The position numbers were made by a program, and so were the translations under genes. From positions 142,561 through 206,560 of the forward strand of contig JAJFIX010000045.1 of assembly GCA_021774575.1 (NCBI GenBank): a stretch of DNA of 64,000 nucleotides. The letters run 5' to 3'. Source of the DNA: Alphaproteobacteria bacterium (GTDB lineage: Bacteria > Pseudomonadota > Alphaproteobacteria > UBA6615). This document shows positions 3,031 to 13,247 of the stretch, piece after piece. Under the pieces are notes generated by a model. That model had not been told where the DNA came from. It did not search any database and saw nothing but the letters and a program-made list of their open reading frames with translations. Numbering within the stretch: position 1 is the first letter of the stretch; each line of letters opens with the position of its first letter.

Positions 3031-3603
3031 CTAATTACTGTCTTTCCAGCGTTCGACGGTGCCGGTATCGATATCGAATAAATCGAGCAACCGGCCGACC
3101 GTATGGTTGATTACCTGATCGAGGGATTTCGGTCTCATATATAAAGCTGGCACGATGGGCGCGACGACCGCCCCCATTTCTGCAAGCTGGGTCATCGTTC
3201 GCAAGTGACCAACATGGAGCGGGGTCTCGCGAATGCCCAAAACGACACGCCGCCTCTCTTTCAGTGCCACGTCAGCGGCACGGGTCAGAAGCGTGTTTGT
3301 GATTCCGCTGGAAATTTCGCTCATGGTCTTGACCGAACAAGGCAGAATCAACATTCCCCGGGTTTGGTAGGACCCCGAAGAAATAGCGGCTCCTATGTCA
3401 CCGACTGGATAACTGACGGACGCCATTTCACGTAAGGTGGCTGGCTTAAAATCTGTCTCATATCCGAGTGTGAGTTCGGCAGCTTTCGACATCACAAGAT
3501 GGGTTTCGATATTTGTATCGCGCAATAACTCGAGCACGCGAACGCCATAAATCGCACCGGACGCACCGGATATGCCAATGATTAGGCGGTCGGTCGATGT
3601 CAT
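3031..3603 (-). CDS. ubiX: Flavin prenyltransferase UbiX
   Basis: 190 aa; N-terminus LIIGISGASGAIYGVRVLELL, typical of UbiX/Pad1. Confidence 0.9.
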   Translation of the reverse strand: MTSTDRLIIGISGASGAIYGVRVLELLRDTNIETHLVMSKAAELTLGYETDFKPATLREMASVSYPVGDIGAAISSGSYQTRGMLILPCSVKTMSEISSGITNTLLTRAADVALKERRRVVLGIRETPLHVGHLRTMTQLAEMGAVVAPIVPALYMRPKSLDQVINHTVGRLLDLFDIDTGTVERWKDSN

Positions 3604-3785: not shown

Positions 3786-4256
3786 TTAGGCCGCTTCTTC
3801 GCACATTGACGGGTCGGATAGGACTAAATCCTCGACCAAATTAAGTAATTGCGACGGCAGGAACGGTTTTGACAGCACTCTATCGGCGCCGAGGCTTTTC
3901 GCCATTTCCAGGAACGAGAGATTTCCAGTCCGTCCACCGCCCGACATGGCGACAATCTTTACGTCATTGCATAAACGGCGCAATTCCAAGATCGTCTCTA
4001 TACCCTCTTTTTCCGGCATCATAATATCGGTCACAACGATGTCGGGTAGAGCCCTTTCAAAAACCTTCAGGCCATCCACACCATTGCACGCAGACTCAAC
4101 ATCATACCCGTTCTCGGCCAAAATATCGCAGACAGTCGCACGCATTTCCTCATTATCCTCAACGACCAAGGCTTTTAACCGCTGCTCGGTCTCCGATTTT
4201 TCATATTCGGACCGGAGGATTTCAGTACCATCCTCGACCCTGAAATAGTTCGCCAT
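3786..4256 (-). CDS. Single-domain response regulator (CheY-like receiver) with a roughly 30-aa N-terminal extension
   Basis: REC motifs are present (VVEDNEEM, VVTDIMMPEKEG, SKPF). I chose the start at MANYF because GGGAGGG lies 5 bp upstream. The longer ORF-track start at 4274 lacks an RBS. Confidence 0.8.
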   Translation of the reverse strand: MANYFRVEDGTEILRSEYEKSETEQRLKALVVEDNEEMRATVCDILAENGYDVESACNGVDGLKVFERALPDIVVTDIMMPEKEGIETILELRRLCNDVKIVAMSGGGRTGNLSFLEMAKSLGADRVLSKPFLPSQLLNLVEDLVLSDPSMCEEAA

Positions 4257-4634
4257 AAAACCCTCCCGTGGCAAATTTTACCTGATTTTGCGTAGACGAC
4301 GGAAGCGCGGTATCGGCACCAAATTTTGGATTGAAATACTGATACCTTAAATACCTTAAAAAACATTACATAAAAATTACCAAAACTTTATGCGGTGTGT
4401 ATTTGCGAAATATCAAGATTTGATAAAAGTTTTTAACAATTGAACAATATTTCCCCTCGGCGTCGGACGCCCAATTGACCAAAGGGTCTTTGCTAATTCC
4501 GACACCCGTTAATAAATCGGTAATCACTTTAGACATATTTTAAAATATGGATAGCACCATTTATATAGTCTCTTTGTATTGTCTTAGGATCCTTTAACGG
4601 CAATTTCGCTCGATATTTTAGGAACGCATCGCCA

Positions 4635-5834
4635 ATGAACGTCCACAAAGATAATAAATTGTTATCGGAAATCGCTCAGCCCTGGAGTTCGGTGCAGAAG
4701 TTTTCAGATGCACTACTCGGGCTGAATGTTGGCGTCGCCCTGTGGGATGCCGATGATCTGTTGGTTAAATGCAATGACTATTACCGGAATGCCCATCCCT
4801 TCGCCGCGGAGCATTTGCTGTCTGGCTCACGTTACGAGGATTTCATCCGCAGTGTTGCCAAGAATGCCTGCGTGCCTGAGGCCGCCGGACGAGAAGAGGC
4901 TTGGATCGCAGATCGTATGAAAACCCACAGAATTGCCGGAAGCATTACCGAGCAAGCGCATGGAACCAAATGGTACGAAGTCCGCAAACAGTTACTTCCC
5001 GACGGAAGTATGATCACCCTCTTTTTCGATATTACCGAACGCAAGAGAGTAGAGGAGCAGCTAGAGGCAACGCTGCAAAACCTTAAACGGTCGAACGAAG
5101 AGCTTGAGCGCTTCGCCTATGTCGCGTCCCACGACCTTCAAGAACCGCTGCGCAAAATCCAAATGTTTGGCGACCGGTTACAAAAAGATCTCGGCAGTGA
5201 GTCCTCCCAAAGCGCCGTGGAATATGTCGGCCGAATGAGGAACGCTTCGGCGCGCATGCAAGTGTTGATTAATGATCTTCTCTCTTTCTCCCGGCTCAAC
5301 ACGAACCAACAATCTTTCGAGCTTGTCGATCTCGATCAAATCGCCGCTGATGTGATTGCAAATTTGGAAGTTACCTTGGCCGAAACTGGTGCGACCGTCG
5401 ACCTGGGTCCTTTACCAGTTCTCTATGCCAATCCAACTCACATGTCGCGCCTGCTTCAAAACCTCATAGCGAATGCGATCAAATTTCATAAACCGGATCA
5501 AAAGCCGGTGGTAACAATACGTGGATCCAGCGCCGCCAACACCCAACCCCAAGGGCAAAATTTCACCAACTCCGAAATCTGCGAAATTACTGTCGCAGAC
5601 AATGGCATTGGATTTGAACCGGAATATAGCCACAAAATTTTTGAATTATTTCAGCGACTTCACGGTAGAAGCGAATTTGCGGGAACAGGACTCGGGCTGG
5701 CAATTTGCCGCCGCATTGTCGAGGCCCATAATGGCACAATTTCCGCTACAGGAATTCCTGGCAAAGGCGCGATATTTAAAATCCTCTTGCCCCTTCAACA
5801 ATCCCAGCAGGTAGAATTCGATGACGCAGCATAG
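4635..5834 (+). CDS. Cytoplasmic PAS-domain sensor histidine kinase with a bacteriophytochrome-type H-box
   Basis: No TM segment. N-terminal PAS-like region. HisKA signature ASHDLQEPLRKI. HATPase_c G-boxes (DNGIGF, GTGLGLAI). Confidence 0.85.
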   Translation: MNVHKDNKLLSEIAQPWSSVQKFSDALLGLNVGVALWDADDLLVKCNDYYRNAHPFAAEHLLSGSRYEDFIRSVAKNACVPEAAGREEAWIADRMKTHRIAGSITEQAHGTKWYEVRKQLLPDGSMITLFFDITERKRVEEQLEATLQNLKRSNEELERFAYVASHDLQEPLRKIQMFGDRLQKDLGSESSQSAVEYVGRMRNASARMQVLINDLLSFSRLNTNQQSFELVDLDQIAADVIANLEVTLAETGATVDLGPLPVLYANPTHMSRLLQNLIANAIKFHKPDQKPVVTIRGSSAANTQPQGQNFTNSEICEITVADNGIGFEPEYSHKIFELFQRLHGRSEFAGTGLGLAICRRIVEAHNGTISATGIPGKGAIFKILLPLQQSQQVEFDDAA

Positions 5835-6288
5835 CGGGATCAAAAACCATACAATAACCATCGTAATGGCCGATGACGATTGCGATGACAGAATGTTAAC
5901 GCGTGAGGCCCTAAACGACAGCAATCTTCTAAATGGATTTGATGAAGTCGAAGATGGCCAGGAACTTATGGATTATTTGCGCCGGACCGGTTCCTACAAG
6001 AATCTTGCCGGAACACCGCTGCCCGGGCTTATTTTGCTCGACCTAAATATGCCGCGCAAAGATGGGCGCGAGGCCTTAAGTGAAATTCGAGCCGATCCGG
6101 ATTTACGGAAAATTCCGGTTGTTGTTTTAACAACGTCCAAGGCGGAGGAAGATATTGCGCGAACTTATGATCTCGGCGTGAACTCTTTCATTGTTAAGCC
6201 AGTCTCGTTTGATGCCCTAACAAAGACAATGCGTGCATTCACCCAATATTGGGCAGAAGTCGTCGAACTTCCTAGACTTAGTGCCTAA
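5821..6288 (+). CDS. Single-domain response regulator (Rcp-like receiver)
   Basis: 155 aa; acidic pocket MADDDCDD, phospho-acceptor context LLDLNMPRKDG, and T/K motifs. Overlaps the upstream kinase by 14 bp. Confidence 0.85.
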   Translation: MTQHSGIKNHTITIVMADDDCDDRMLTREALNDSNLLNGFDEVEDGQELMDYLRRTGSYKNLAGTPLPGLILLDLNMPRKDGREALSEIRADPDLRKIPVVVLTTSKAEEDIARTYDLGVNSFIVKPVSFDALTKTMRAFTQYWAEVVELPRLSA

Positions 6289-6298
6289 GGAGCAAAGA

Positions 6299-7966
6299 AT
6301 GTCGAAGCCGGTACATGTTCTGTTAGTCGAAGACGACGAGGACGATTACATCCTGACCAAGGGCATGTTGATGGACTCACCCATTCGGCGATTTGAGATC
6401 AAATGGGTCGCTGATTACGACGAAGCCGTCCAGGTGATAAAATCGGCGAAATTCGACCTCTATCTGATCGATTATCGTCTTGGCAGAAAAGACGGGCTAG
6501 ACTTGGTGCGCGAAACAATCGCAGCCGGGTGCACGGCTCCTATAATTTTGCTAACGGGCCTGGATAATCGAGATATTGACGTCGAAGCAATGGAGGCCGG
6601 CGCCGCCGATTACCTTGTTAAGGGCCAAATGTCGCCGCTCATTCTGGAGCGCTCCATTCGATATGCGCTTGCTCGCCAGAATCACTTGGCAACAGAGCGA
6701 AAATCTAAGGAGATGCTCGAAAAAGCAAATAAACGCCTCGCCGAGCTTTACGAAAAAGCGCATCAGTCCGTCGATAACGTCTCCCACGAATTCCGGACGC
6801 CGCTCACCGTAGTCAAAGAATATAGCTCGATTTTACGCGACGGGCTGGGTGGCGAGATAAACGAAAAACAAAGGGAATTTCTGACAATCATCCTCGACAG
6901 GGTCGACGACTTGACCTTCCTGGTAGATGACATGCTCGACATCAGCAAACTCGAGGCCGATTTACTTTGCATTTATCGTCGGCGCACGCGCTTAAGCGAC
7001 GTTATCGACCGAATTCGCCCTATTCTTGAACGCAAGGCATTGGCCAATAACGGCAAACTAAAAATTGAAATTGACGACCCCGAACCATTCATTTATTGCG
7101 ATGGCGAAAAAATCGGTCGGGTCCTCATTAACCTCGCGGTCAATGCATATAAATTTTCAGGCGAGGGCGGCGTTGTCTCGATCATCGCCAAAGTCGACCG
7201 GGAAAGATCCGATCTGTGCGTTTCTGTTAGCGACAATGGCCCAGGTATTTCGCCAGAACAACTCCAACCCATATTTGACCGGTTCCAACAAGGAGATAGC
7301 CAGACCCGAAGTGCGACAAAGGGCTTTGGGCTTGGGTTGAATATTGCCAAAGAATTAGTCGAATTAAATTACGGCAATATTTCCGTATCTAGCGAAGTCG
7401 GAAACGGCAGTTGCTTTAGCTTCACTGTGCCCATTTTCGACCCGCTAACGGTTTTTGAACGCTATACCAGCGGCCTGTTACTGTCGGGCAACGGTTCTGC
7501 CGCTATCTCTCTAATTTCCGTAGGATTGGAACCAGGTGCGGATTTGGCGGGTGTCGAGGAGATAGAGCAAATCTTGCAAGTCCAATTGCGGCGGCACGAT
7601 TTACTCTTTGAGACGGGACCGAGCAAATGGGTCCTATGCTCAGCAGCGGACAATTCCGGCCCAGACCTTGTAATCGAAAAAATTTCAGAAGCCATAACAC
7701 AGGCTAATTCGTTCCTTCCCGAAGATGAATTGCCCCCTGTGTCGCTCAACATCATTGGGACATGGAAAGTACCAGGCGATATCGCCGGATTGTTTGCCCG
7801 ATTTAATCAAATTCGCGCTGCCGACGCCGGGAATAACAGCCATAACACGCACACGGAATTTGTGAATACCGCAACGTCAGACCTGCCGATTCCGTCGTTA
7901 CAGATTGAATTAGCTGGTAGCGAAAATGGACCAACACCAAATATAGGCGGCGAAATTGGAAGATAA
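6299..7966 (+). CDS. Response regulator-histidine kinase hybrid (REC-HisKA-HATPase) with an uncharacterised 180-aa C-terminal domain
   Basis: N-terminal REC (LLVEDDEDD, LIDYRLGRKDG), H-box SHEFRTPLT, and HATPase G-boxes (DNGPGIS, GFGLGLNI). The C-terminal 180 aa match no motif I recognise. AAGGAG precedes the 6299 ATG. The ORF-track start at 6233 is upstream of the stop of the previous gene. Confidence 0.85.
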   Translation: MSKPVHVLLVEDDEDDYILTKGMLMDSPIRRFEIKWVADYDEAVQVIKSAKFDLYLIDYRLGRKDGLDLVRETIAAGCTAPIILLTGLDNRDIDVEAMEAGAADYLVKGQMSPLILERSIRYALARQNHLATERKSKEMLEKANKRLAELYEKAHQSVDNVSHEFRTPLTVVKEYSSILRDGLGGEINEKQREFLTIILDRVDDLTFLVDDMLDISKLEADLLCIYRRRTRLSDVIDRIRPILERKALANNGKLKIEIDDPEPFIYCDGEKIGRVLINLAVNAYKFSGEGGVVSIIAKVDRERSDLCVSVSDNGPGISPEQLQPIFDRFQQGDSQTRSATKGFGLGLNIAKELVELNYGNISVSSEVGNGSCFSFTVPIFDPLTVFERYTSGLLLSGNGSAAISLISVGLEPGADLAGVEEIEQILQVQLRRHDLLFETGPSKWVLCSAADNSGPDLVIEKISEAITQANSFLPEDELPPVSLNIIGTWKVPGDIAGLFARFNQIRAADAGNNSHNTHTEFVNTATSDLPIPSLQIELAGSENGPTPNIGGEIGR

Positions 7967-8372
7967 ACCGACCGTCGTCGTCATTGACGATGACCTTCAC
8001 ATTACCGAGGCCTTGAGCCTCCGGCTGACTATGGCCGGGTGTAATGTACGAACCGCCGACAACGGCTATGCTGGCCTCGCCCTGATCAGCGAATGCAACC
8101 CGGATGCTGTTGTGCTCGACTTATCTATGCCTCAGATGGACGGAATAACAGTATTGACCAGTCTAAACGATAGCGGCCTCAACGAGGTCATCCCAGTCGT
8201 AGTTCTTACAGCTAGAGTCTCTGACAAGGTCAAACGAAGAGTAATGGAACTTGGCGCATATGGCTTCATCCAGAAACCTTATGACGCCGAATATTTGGTG
8301 ACAACATTGCAATCGGCAATTAGCAGGGGCCATCAGGATATGTCGCCAATGTCATTCACAGCACGGGGATAG
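7956..8372 (+). CDS. Single-domain response regulator
   Basis: 138 aa; VVVIDDD, VVLDLSMPQMDG, KPY. Apparent TTG start overlapping the hybrid kinase stop, so the start is uncertain. Confidence 0.75.
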   Translation: MEDKPTVVVIDDDLHITEALSLRLTMAGCNVRTADNGYAGLALISECNPDAVVLDLSMPQMDGITVLTSLNDSGLNEVIPVVVLTARVSDKVKRRVMELGAYGFIQKPYDAEYLVTTLQSAISRGHQDMSPMSFTARG

Positions 8373-8376
8373 CGTT

Positions 8377-9315
8377 ATGCCTGATCAAAAAACTGTTTTC
8401 ATTGCCGCGCACGATCCGCAATTTCTGCAACAAATTACCAAGCGCTGCGCAGGTCTTGGTCTGGACGTGCACTCGGCGTCAGACGGCATGGATGCGTTAT
8501 GGCAAATATTGAACGGTCAATTTGGATTGCTCATTCTCGATTGCGATATGCCGGGCACGGATTGGTTTGACCTTGCGGAAAAATTGAAGATAAAAAGTAG
8601 TCAAAAACCGGTTTCCCAACCGATTCCCAAACCAATTCCCATCGTCGCCCTTGGTCAAGATTCCGAGCAAGACCATGAAGAGCGCTGGGCTGCTTTAAAC
8701 GCCTATTATTGCCATAAGGGCCTTGATACCTGGGCCAATTTGCGATCCATTATTTCCAAAGAATTCGACCTTCAAACACCCGGCTCGTGCATAATCGACA
8801 CGGTTCCTGTACTCGAGACCGCCCCTGTTCGACCGCCTAAAATTCTCGTCGTCGATGACGACCTCCGAATCACGGCTGTGATGAAATATCGGCTTGAGGC
8901 ATTTGGCCTGACGGTGTTTCGGGCCAAAGACGCCACCGAAGGCGCGGCAATGGCGGTAAAGGAACTTCCAGACCTCATTATCACCGACTACAATATGCCG
9001 GGAGGTAGTTCCGGCGAAAATATGGTCTTTACTCTGAAGAGAATTGAGACAACCAAGAACATCCCGGTCATTGTCGTCACGGGCCAAAATATGGACGGGC
9101 GAACCGACTTTGTGCTGCGCCGTGAAATGTTAGGCAGGGGCGGGGCGCAGGCCTACCTGGAAAAACCATATGATTTTGACCAACTGGTCGCTGAAATACG
9201 AAAATTGATCCGTATTCCGGAAAAAACCGACGCCCCTGTAGCTCCCCAGTCAAAGGCGAGCACACAGAAAGAAGCGCATGGTTCGCCAGCAACGCTGTTA
9301 GCTGTCGGCAACTGA
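8377..9315 (+). CDS. Tandem-receiver protein (REC-linker-REC) with no output domain
   Basis: 312 aa. The C-terminal REC is canonical (ILVVDDD, IITDYNMPGG, KPY). The N-terminal REC-like domain is divergent (ILDCDMPGTD). The linker is Pro-rich. Confidence 0.75.
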   Translation: MPDQKTVFIAAHDPQFLQQITKRCAGLGLDVHSASDGMDALWQILNGQFGLLILDCDMPGTDWFDLAEKLKIKSSQKPVSQPIPKPIPIVALGQDSEQDHEERWAALNAYYCHKGLDTWANLRSIISKEFDLQTPGSCIIDTVPVLETAPVRPPKILVVDDDLRITAVMKYRLEAFGLTVFRAKDATEGAAMAVKELPDLIITDYNMPGGSSGENMVFTLKRIETTKNIPVIVVTGQNMDGRTDFVLRREMLGRGGAQAYLEKPYDFDQLVAEIRKLIRIPEKTDAPVAPQSKASTQKEAHGSPATLLAVGN

Positions 9316-9393: not shown

Positions 9394-9906
9394 TTATTCG
9401 TATTGGATCAATACCGCGAGGACGCCAGAGTAGTTGCCCGCAGGCTGGCCGGAGCCTAGATTGAGTGTGGCGCCAATCCTAATAGCGTATTGAAAATCGG
9501 CCGAATCTATTATGCCGTGGGATAGAGAAAAATTCTCCGCCGTTAAACTGTCATTTCCCGACCATAGGACCACCATTTGCACCGGTAATTTTATTTGGTA
9601 CCTGCTGTAGCCGCCGATCGAGCCAAACATTGCTGGTCGACCGCCGGCAATTTCACTGACACTGCCAGAACTATGAATTTTCGCGTCGGCGCCGATCGTC
9701 AGCGTTCCGCCTCCCACGCCGGAAACAATATGATTAACGCTGAGATGCTGTAGGGCGACGACTGACGTCGTTTCGAAAACTTGGACCGTTGCCGTGCCCG
9801 TTGCAGTCGCACCCGCCCAAACGGAAGCAATACTCGCATGAACACACACGGCGGCAATGATTGCGCCAAGCTGAAGCTTACCCCGTATTTTCCTGCAGAA
9901 CACCAT
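9394..9906 (-). CDS. Secreted beta-rich protein, DUF4402-like (SCPU/Csu-pilin-like fold family)
   Basis: 170 aa with a signal peptide. Gly/Thr/Ser-rich with a C-terminal ...GATLNLGSGQPAGNYSGVLAVLIQYE motif resembling DUF4402. No adjacent chaperone or usher. Confidence 0.45.
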   Translation of the reverse strand: MVFCRKIRGKLQLGAIIAAVCVHASIASVWAGATATGTATVQVFETTSVVALQHLSVNHIVSGVGGGTLTIGADAKIHSSGSVSEIAGGRPAMFGSIGGYSRYQIKLPVQMVVLWSGNDSLTAENFSLSHGIIDSADFQYAIRIGATLNLGSGQPAGNYSGVLAVLIQYE

Positions 9907-10061: not shown

Positions 10062-13000
10062 TTACTCGTGCGGCCCCAGCCTCGCCCGAATTCGCTTTGC
10101 CAATTCCGCCTTACTATAGGGCTTACGCAATAGGTCTCCCACAAGTTCAGCGCGAAACGTCGAATCACCTAATTCTTGCTGAGACCAATCCGCAGCAAAG
10201 CCCGATGTGAGCAATATTTTTATATCCGGACGCGCCCTATTTGTGTCCATTGCAAGACGAAACCCATCGATTCCGCTCGGCATGACGATATCGGTAAATA
10301 ATAAATCAATTTTTTCCGGCCCACCAATAATCTCAAGGGCTTGCTTACCATCGCTTGCCGCAAGCGTGTCATACCCCAACTCAGTCAAATGCGAGACGGC
10401 AATATCGAGTAGATCCTCTTCATCTTCGACGACAAGGATAACCTCACTACCTTGAGGCAGCACCTCTTCGTTTTTACTCTCGATCTCCGCCTCATCCGAG
10501 AGCCCGATTGCTCGGGGCAAAAAGAGTCGAAACACCGTGCCTTTCTCGAGTTCGGACTCCAACTCAATATGACCGCCGGAACGTTCGACAAACCCATACA
10601 CCATACTAAGGCCTAGGCCAGTTCCTTTACCTCTCGGCTTCGTCGTGAAAAATGGGTCAAATATACGCTCGCGGAGTTCTTCGGCTATGCCCGTACCCGT
10701 ATCGGATACCGAGACCATGACAAATTCTCCGGGCCGACTTCCTGGATGACGTTTTACATATTCCTGGTCCAGCACTTTATTGGCAGTCAAGAGTTTCAGC
10801 GTGCCGCCATCAGGCATAGCATCGCGGGCATTTAATGTAAGATTGACGATTACGTCATCAAAATCCCCCGGATCAAAATCGGCATTCCATAAATCTTGGG
10901 ATAGCTGAGTAATCACCGCAATCCCAGAGTTTCCGGATTTAGAAATCATTTCTCTAAGATCGAGCAAGCATTTGTTCGCCGATGAAATCTGTTTTCCAGA
11001 GGAGGTAACACGCGAAAAGCTCAGCAGTCGCTCGGTAAGCGCGGCACCACGATTAACCCCCCGAAGTGCGGTCTCAATATGTTTCATCGCCACCTGATCT
11101 TCGGATCTAATCACTTTTAACAATTCCAAATTTCCCATGACGATACTCAAAATATTATTGAAATCATGGGCAATCCCACTCCCCATTTCACCGACCGCCT
11201 GCATTTTTTGCGCATGGTATAGCTGTTCGTCATGGGCCCTTTCGTCGGTTATATCGTGCAAAACACCAGTGGCACGAGTTGCTTTTCCGTCTTCGTCACG
11301 CAAGCATTTTGCTTGGGTTTGAAATAGACGGTAACTACCATCTTTTTTCCGCAATCGATATTCGCACGACCATGTGTTCTCACCTCCGTCGAGAAAGGCT
11401 TCAAATTCTTTGATAATGCGAGGACGTTCTTCAGGGTGCAAATGCGCCCTTAACGTATCTTGGCTGGAGCTAAGTTCACCAATGTCATAGCCCAGCATTT
11501 CGCCAAATCTCTCGGAGAAAAACATCTGCTTTCTCGCGACTTCTAAATCCCAGACCGCGTCCGAAATGGCACCCGTCGCCAACCGGTACCGTTCCTCATT
11601 TTCCTGCAGGGCGGTGGCAATTTTTCTCTGCTGTGTAATATCGGTTGAAATGGTTCCGACATATTGGATATTGCCATGCGCATCATGTATCGGAAATTTT
11701 GTCGCCTGAATTGCAATTTCCTCACCTTCGTTTTGCCACGATATGACACGCATCATATCTACCCCGGTGCGAAAAACTTGCTCATCAAAACCGGCCGATG
11801 CTGTGGCTAAAGGATGCTCGGAAACATTGCGCGGATTTTCCCAGAGCGCTTCATTCAAACCAATGCCCAGACGCTCTCTCGCAACGGCGTTGGCGATTTT
11901 CAAATCACCCTTTCGGTCTTTTACACTGATGCCGGTCGGCGCATTATCCAGGATTGCAGCCAGAAGTCCCTCACTTTCCTGGCGCGCGAATTCGGCTTCT
12001 TTCAACTCCGTAACATCGCGCCCTGTTGACTGATATTCCGCAATTTCTCCATTTGCCCCGGGAATTGCCGTAACCAGCCATTGATACGCTCGCTTCTCTC
12101 CATCCGCGCGAGTCAATACGCCGTGAAAAGTTATCGGTTCTGAGCCCGGCTTAATCTGCGCAATACTCGCCATAAATCTTTCCCGATCGGCCGGTTCCAT
12201 TCTCTGGCCGAACGGTGTGCCAACCAGTTCATCGAAAGATTTTTGATAGACCCGCTGATAGGCCAAATTGACGAAGCTGATGCTTTCGTCGGGCCACCAG
12301 CGGCTTACGGCCTCCTGCTGGCTATCGACAACGGCACGATAGCGCCCATCACTTTTTTCCAGGGCGCCAGTCGTTTTCATATGTTCCGCTATTTCGGCCG
12401 TAAGCGCCTCCTTACTCGCTCGCTCTGAAATTACTCTGTTAACGGTTGACGCAAATAGAAAAGCAAGGGCGATGCCAAGCACTGCGAAAAGGTTTCGGGC
12501 TACGCCCGTGTTCTCAACACCATGTTCAAGGGCTAAGGCTTGCCAAAAAACAAACGTAATAGTCAGAATTGCCAGGGCAGAAGATATGCCAAGCCAATGC
12601 GGAAATCGCACCAAATTATGCCGCGCTGTTTGCCAGGCAAGAGCCAACAATCCGACGCCCAAAGCAACAAAGCCCAAGGACGTATGCAATGCCATGCGAG
12701 TGAATCGCCCCCAGCCATATGCCCCTTCGAGCCCGACTACATAGCCGAGTGTGGCAACAGTTCCTAGGCCCAGAACTGCCGATCCAATTAATCCAAGGAG
12801 TAGTCCGTCGCCGCGACCTTTATCTATTTTCGATAATAGAATTGCGGCGGCAACAAGCATGAACGATAGGGCGGTATTTGGCGCCATTCGGCCCGGATGC
12901 GAGGTTTGCACGGTTACATAGTGCTGCATCAGAAACTGATCAATGCCCAGGTCGATACTAAAAACATACTGAGATATGGTTAGAAGCCCGAGCGCCATTA

Positions 13001-13247
13001 CGGTCACCGCAAGACCTGTTGCCAGTCGATCTTGCGCAATGACTAAAGCAGTCAGCGCCAGCCCACTCAATACAAATCCAAGAGCCGTATTGTATTGCAT
13101 AGGCACGAGGGCAGGGCTCAATTGAACGAGCAAAACAGAATGGGTGTGCCAGCCAATAAATGCCACAAAGCCCAAAAACGCTGCCATTCCTCCGGCAACG
13201 AAACCAAGAATTCTGTATTTTTCAGTCGAGCAATTATTAAATCTCAT
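10062..13247 (-). CDS. Hybrid sensor histidine kinase: polytopic membrane sensor domain, multiple PAS, HisKA, HATPase, C-terminal REC
   Basis: 1061 aa with about 8 predicted TM helices at the N-terminus. H-box [21 protein letters not shown]-boxes, and a C-terminal receiver ([24 protein letters not shown]). Confidence 0.9.

Follow-up and report, generated by a model that had tools for sequence, protein, structure and literature searches.

Gene organization of the locus

In the 64,000-nucleotide stretch of DNA analysed here (the window), a two-component operon of five genes is located at positions 4635-9315 and contains no recognisable output domain. Its third gene encodes a REC-HisKA-HATPase kinase with an additional C-terminal region, referred to below as the tail. 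The genes of the operon are as follows.

4635-5834, forward strand: PAS_7-HisKA-HATPase sensor kinase, upstream operon partner
5821-6288, forward strand: single-domain receiver, upstream operon partner
6299-7966, forward strand: kinase gene, 555 aa from ATG 6299 (gene call; 100% identical to database protein P0001)
7956-8372, forward strand: stand-alone receiver with a TTG start (Pfam), overlapping the stop-codon end of the kinase gene by 11 nt
8377-9315, forward strand: REC-REC protein, closing the operon

Upstream of the operon, a further receiver is encoded divergently (3786-4274, reverse strand). The surrounding genes, all on the reverse strand, encode a di-haem cytochrome c peroxidase/MauG-like protein (1161-2756), a flavoprotein (3031-3603), a DUF4402 protein (9394-9906), and a kinase of 1061 aa whose C-terminal region is receiver-like (10062-13247), and they have no evident functional link to the tail.

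Translation of the window places the tail sequence quoted in the preliminary description within the ORF 6233-7966 (forward strand), with the codon frame of the tail running from 7421, one position after the 7420 given there. The mechanical ORF begins at GTG 6233 and shares 56 nt with the upstream receiver gene. The true start of the kinase is probably ATG 6299, yielding a 555-aa protein, since an AAGGAG motif (6286-6291) lies 7 nt 5' of this codon and since this is where P0001 (555 aa) and all homologs start. ORF residue numbers in this article refer to the 577-residue ORF from GTG 6233, and tail positions are counted from F397 as position 1. The kinase comprises the following features, all on the forward strand.

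6317-6628: receiver (REC), residues 29-132 (Pfam PF00072, E 2.7e-15)
6770-6958: HisKA dimerisation/phospho-acceptor domain with the H-box SHEFRTPL, residues 180-242 (Pfam PF00512, E 9.1e-16)
7100-7432: HATPase_c catalytic ATP-binding domain, residues 290-400 (Pfam PF02518, E 1.3e-25)
7433-7834: degenerate GGDEF-like domain, residues 401-534 (helix, strand, helix, strand, strand, helix, strand, helix)
7589-7600: RRHD, an RxxD inhibitory-site (I-site) motif, residues 453-456 (translation, alignment to solved cyclases)
7616-7630: GPSKW, the remnant of GG[D/E]EF, residues 462-466 (aligned to GGEEF/GGDEF)
7679-7681: K483, where the putative second I-site arginine would lie (alignments)
7709-7723: NSFLP, counterpart of the family motif NRNRP, residues 493-497 (the family motif spans 492-496)
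7835-7963: low-complexity C-terminal end, predicted to be disordered (pLDDT, alignment gaps, composition)

Residues 397-577 gave no match in Pfam or NCBIfam, even at E≤10, in keeping with the preliminary description, in which no known motif had been recognised. The C-terminal end of 43 residues is of low complexity (N5 T5 G5 S4 E4 P4 I4) and non-conserved, the alignment of tails consists mostly of gaps past domain position ~133, and the last 41 residues of P0001 (515-555) have a pLDDT below 50 in the full-length model. The final ~41 residues thus appear to form a disordered extension lacking a conserved role, and the end formerly termed Pro/Gly-rich is more aptly called low-complexity.

Distribution and architectures of the tail family

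A search with the full-length protein retrieved many relatives (40-52% identity) whose alignments span 82-93% of the query, so that homology runs through the tail. A conserved block of ~130-135 residues is evident in the alignment of 66 tails (A1) and in the 261 collected relatives, and an exhaustive search with the profile through 1.84 billion cluster representatives returned 545 proteins at E≤1e-3, including 380 at E≤1e-10. Conservation of the tail across the 261 relatives and 545 cluster representatives is more than chance. In every match for which the architecture was checked, the domain directly follows the HATPase_c domain of a HisKA kinase, and the coordinates and lengths of the remaining matches are consistent with this position. 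The named relatives all belong to Planctomycetota (Pirellulales, Planctomycetaceae, Thermoguttaceae, and Phycisphaerae). Taken with the profile-search counts and the constant position, this defines a small and probably clade-restricted family. A scan of genome contigs with the full protein detected only REC-HisKA-HATPase cores of unrelated phyla (Pseudoalteromonas, Rheinheimera, Acidobacteriota, Chloroflexia, and others), which share 32-38% identity; these matches cover residues 1-380, ending near 380, and none reaches the tail, an observation suggesting that the tail is an extra module peculiar to this kinase family.

The main architecture of the family is REC-HisKA-HATPase-tail, and other members carry an additional C-terminal receiver or take the form CHASE-PAS-HisKA-HATPase-tail. 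An 852-aa form, REC-GGDEF(intact)-REC-HisKA-HATPase-tail, is represented by proteins P0022 and P0028 and by a locus of Phycisphaerae bacterium RAS1 (SMLU01000004.1, 7001-9559), so that an intact GGDEF domain and the dead GGDEF-like domain discussed below reside within one polypeptide. At the RAS1 locus, the 852-aa gene is followed by four receiver genes and then by a gene for an HDOD protein.

The layout of a sensor kinase, at least one receiver, the receiver-kinase-tail protein, a receiver, and one or more REC-only proteins is found in the window and at four other loci. When the C-terminal receivers of nine fused homologs were compared by BLASTP with five nearby receiver domains, the receiver encoded at 7956-8372 was the best match in all nine cases; judged by these matches, it corresponds, as a separate gene, to the receiver that some homologs carry fused behind the tail. 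The gene fusion is thereby tied to the gene neighbourhood, and the kinase core and its probable acceptor lie on either side of the tail. Outside the fused proteins, no separate diguanylate cyclase, EAL, or PilZ gene was found in the five neighbourhoods (the window and the four other loci), and no ORF of at least 150 aa with GG[DE]EF occurs in the 64-kb window.

Fold of the tail and its relationship to GGDEF domains

The AlphaFold model obtained with A1 has a pLDDT of 90.5 and a pTM of 0.84 and displays the topology helix (8-21), strand (27-36), helix (45-55), strand (61-66), strand (69-76), helix (80-97), strand (107-117), helix (121-137). The full-length model has a pLDDT of 85.6 and a pTM of 0.73, with a pLDDT of ~90 in the GGDEF-like domain. 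The best Foldseek match of the tail model is 5euh (E 7e-4, TM 0.60), and the tail contains a palm-like alpha/beta core (beta-alpha-beta-beta-alpha-beta) that can be superposed on solved GGDEF domains.

Profile comparisons lead to the same superfamily. The A1 profile matches the diguanylate cyclase 9p6j at E 2.1e-6, with RxxD and GGEEF in register, followed by DosC at E 0.015, and most of the next matches are GGDEF domains (SiaD, Dcsbis, SadC). In a Pfam scan of the 66 tails, GGDEF (PF00990; seven tails at E≤0.1) and GGDEF_2 (PF17853; ten tails, weak and all sub-threshold, best E 0.0064) were the only families matched more than once, and the tail of P0045, taken by itself, passes the Pfam GGDEF cut-off (26.1 bits against 23.8; profile positions 53-159). 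The window protein itself has no GGDEF_2 match and no PF00990 match at E≤10, whether as full protein or as tail (gathering threshold 23.8 bits). An hhalign comparison with the eight bona fide GGDEF domains that occur inside family members gave E 5.5e-4 at a probability of only 30%, attributable to a thin template, and is counted as supporting evidence only; the GGDEF match obtained by phmmer of the tail against the PDB (E 0.17) is likewise suggestive only. GGDEF_2 resembles the tail in being a diverged, non-catalytic GGDEF-like fold, and PF17853 is found mainly in transcription regulators.

On the basis of the models, the Foldseek result, and the profile matches, the tail region resolves into a folded GGDEF-like domain (7433-7834) and a disordered end (7835-7963), and residues ~401-534 very probably form a GGDEF-type domain (nucleotidyl-cyclase palm), compact and much diverged, that is joined directly to the ATP-binding domain. 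The view that the tail is a genuinely new unclassified domain, a degenerate receiver or Hpt, or a disordered region draws on the lack of a Pfam or NCBIfam match for the protein and on a word-index homolog search with the tail alone, which found no relatives; contradicted by the profile matches and the fold search to GGDEF, it is now highly improbable. The model has neither the (beta-alpha)5 flavodoxin-like fold with an acidic pocket that marks a receiver nor the four-helix bundle with His of an Hpt, and disorder is confined to the last ~41 residues.

The preliminary description had presented the region as an uncharacterised C-terminal domain and possibly a new output or partner-binding module, to be probed by structure prediction and homolog searches and to be abandoned if the region proved disordered or aligned to a known domain such as a degenerate receiver or Hpt. 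That the REC-HisKA-HATPase kinase carries an additional domain, folded and conserved, is borne out by the Pfam layout, the alignment, and the models, and the partners to which it is fused are kinase cores, some with a receiver or an intact REC-GGDEF. The label uncharacterised no longer applies, as the fold search, the profile search, and the Pfam match of one homolog all give GGDEF; the region does, in spirit, align to a known domain, though this is a GGDEF-like one in place of the receiver or Hpt suggested. The tail may still plausibly serve in regulation or partner binding, but it is no novelty, the module being a diverged, dead GGDEF domain. Rather than defining a new class, the tail is a shortened and much diverged representative of the GGDEF superfamily; standard profiles fail to detect it in most of the family, the window protein included.

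Loss of the active site and retention of the I-site motif

The residues required for cyclase activity have been lost from the tail. The GG[D/E]EF position reads G66-P-S-K-W70 in the window, and its Gly, Asp, and Glu positions are variable across the family (261 domains: G 25%, P 41%, two variable positions, W 97%). The metal-binding Asp is missing from strand 1 (AISLISVG), ten residues are deleted opposite 'DvDhFKxxNdxqGh' (the FKxxNDxxGH GTP-binding segment), and the last helix has no conserved Lys/Arg. Compared with canonical cyclases (PleD, WspR, DosC, GcbC; PF00990), the tail thus lacks GG[D/E]EF, the metal Asp, and FKxxNDxxGH, and the last strand is missing as well. An active diguanylate cyclase output domain would be in accord with the fold similarity to GGDEF, its single point of support, but the combined loss of GG[D/E]EF, the strand-1 Asp, the GTP-binding segment, and the last-helix Lys/Arg excludes this activity at the sequence level and leaves it a negligible probability; as read from these residues, the tail is unable to make c-di-GMP.

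The I-site motif has been retained. R57-x-x-D60 (RRHD, ORF residues 453-456) is followed by LLFET and then by GPSKW, which places RxxD five residues before the former GGDEF, the spacing of RxxD-x5-GGEEF in 9p6j and DosC. The Arg is kept in 245 of the 261 relatives (94%) and the Asp in 251 (96%). Position 87 aligns with the Arg of 'aERIr' in DosC and 9p6j and is Arg in 90% of the family, with Lys483 in the window; from its spacing, it appears equivalent to SgmT R794 and PleD R390 (PMC3509222). The six most conserved tail positions, with F1 and P4 set aside as part of HATPase_c, are W70, D60, R57, W115, P105, and R87, so that I-site positions account for three of them.

This pattern bears on the main competing explanation, in which the GGDEF-derived domain binds no nucleotide and serves as a scaffold, namely a dimerisation surface, a spacer, or a receiver-docking platform for the kinase core. 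RxxD could be conserved for structural reasons, and the scaffold explanation deserves serious weight while falling well short of probable. It has to contend with the fact that conservation among the tail-specific residues peaks at exactly the I-site positions R57, D60, and R87, whereas degenerate GGDEF domains that bind no nucleotide typically lose RxxD.

A second family feature is the motif NRNRP, ~80% conserved, which follows the long helix and is absent from canonical GGDEF domains; NRNR is missing in ~10% of members, which still keep RxxD. Together with further conserved arginines not present in canonical GGDEF domains, NRNRP raises the alternative that the Arg-rich surface (RxxD, R87, NRNRP) accommodates a different ligand, such as pGpG, cGAMP, GTP, or a phosphorylated receiver. 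This is improbable, given that the RxxD spacing is that of the canonical c-di-GMP I-site and that NRNRP is missing from the window copy.

The window copy is in fact depleted of arginine. It keeps two of the seven family-conserved arginines (R14 and R57) and carries the changes R18 to G, R64 to E, R87 to K, and NRNRP to NSFLP. Equal depletion is seen in only 11 of the 261 domains, which puts the window copy in the lowest 4%. With so few of the family arginines left, its putative ligand site may be weakened.

Comparison with known c-di-GMP receptors

SgmT of Myxococcus xanthus, a hybrid histidine kinase, ends in a degenerate GGDEF domain, which binds c-di-GMP via R763/D766; binding sequesters the protein and leaves its in vitro phosphorylation unchanged (PMC3509222). 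SgmT and the window kinase share a dead A-site (GGGVF in SgmT, GPSKW here) together with an intact RxxD; downstream of RxxD, SgmT and most of the tail family have an Arg at what may be an equivalent position, where the window copy has Lys. Their architectures differ, SgmT being GAF-HK-REC-GGDEF and the tail kinases REC-HK-GGDEF*(-REC). The window protein does not have the GAF-HisKA-HATPase-REC-GGDEF order expected of an SgmT ortholog; it has no GAF, and its receiver is N-terminal or separately encoded. Unlike the GGDEF domain of SgmT, which standard profiles detect, the tail is shortened (one helix merged, the last strand missing), missed by Pfam, and directly adjoined to HATPase_c. SgmT also comes from Myxococcota, whereas the named tail relatives are Planctomycetota.

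PelD and PopA are likewise degenerate GGDEF domains that act as c-di-GMP I-site receptors; PelD is carried on GAF/transmembrane segments and PopA on receivers, whereas the tail is carried on a kinase core, and sequence identity is ~14%. CckA binds c-di-GMP on its catalytic domain. In Caulobacter, c-di-GMP acts directly on the histidine kinases CckA and ShkA to switch their output, with ShkA using a pseudo-receiver domain (PMC10519070). Neither kinase has a GGDEF-derived module, in contrast to the sensor proposed for the tail. A literature search on Planctomycetes, c-di-GMP, and histidine kinases found no paper on the tail family.

Proposed function and significance

The retained I-site motif raises the prospect that the tail is a c-di-GMP sensor that would couple the second messenger to the kinase. 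From its sequence features, sensing of c-di-GMP by the tail is quite possible while somewhat short of probable, and the combined statement that it is a GGDEF-like domain that also senses c-di-GMP is given close to an even chance. The intact REC-GGDEF fused to some kinase-tail proteins is a modest extra link to c-di-GMP; the absence of nearby c-di-GMP genes and the arginine depletion of the window copy weigh against sensing.

The kinase itself occupies the middle of a multi-tier cascade that passes from sensor kinase to receiver, to receiver-kinase, and on to further receivers. Under c-di-GMP sensing, ligand binding might shift the kinase/phosphatase balance, alter transfer to the receiver that is encoded just downstream and fused in some homologs, or control localisation, as in SgmT. 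The most specific version, a minimal GGDEF-derived sensor of c-di-GMP or a related nucleotide on a mid-cascade receiver-kinase that would control phosphotransfer to the receiver beside it or fused to it, with NRNRP in the binding site, is rather unlikely as a whole.

For the window, the practical result is an annotation fix. For the family, kinases that are currently annotated as REC-HisKA-HATPase only, represented by 545 cluster representatives, gain a testable link to c-di-GMP, and Pfam-based domain censuses are seen to undercount degenerate GGDEF modules. The window protein provides, beside SgmT, a second kinase with a candidate degenerate-GGDEF receptor domain in a different architecture, and if it does act as a sensor, the tail would represent a distinct route by which a second messenger controls a multi-tier phosphorelay.
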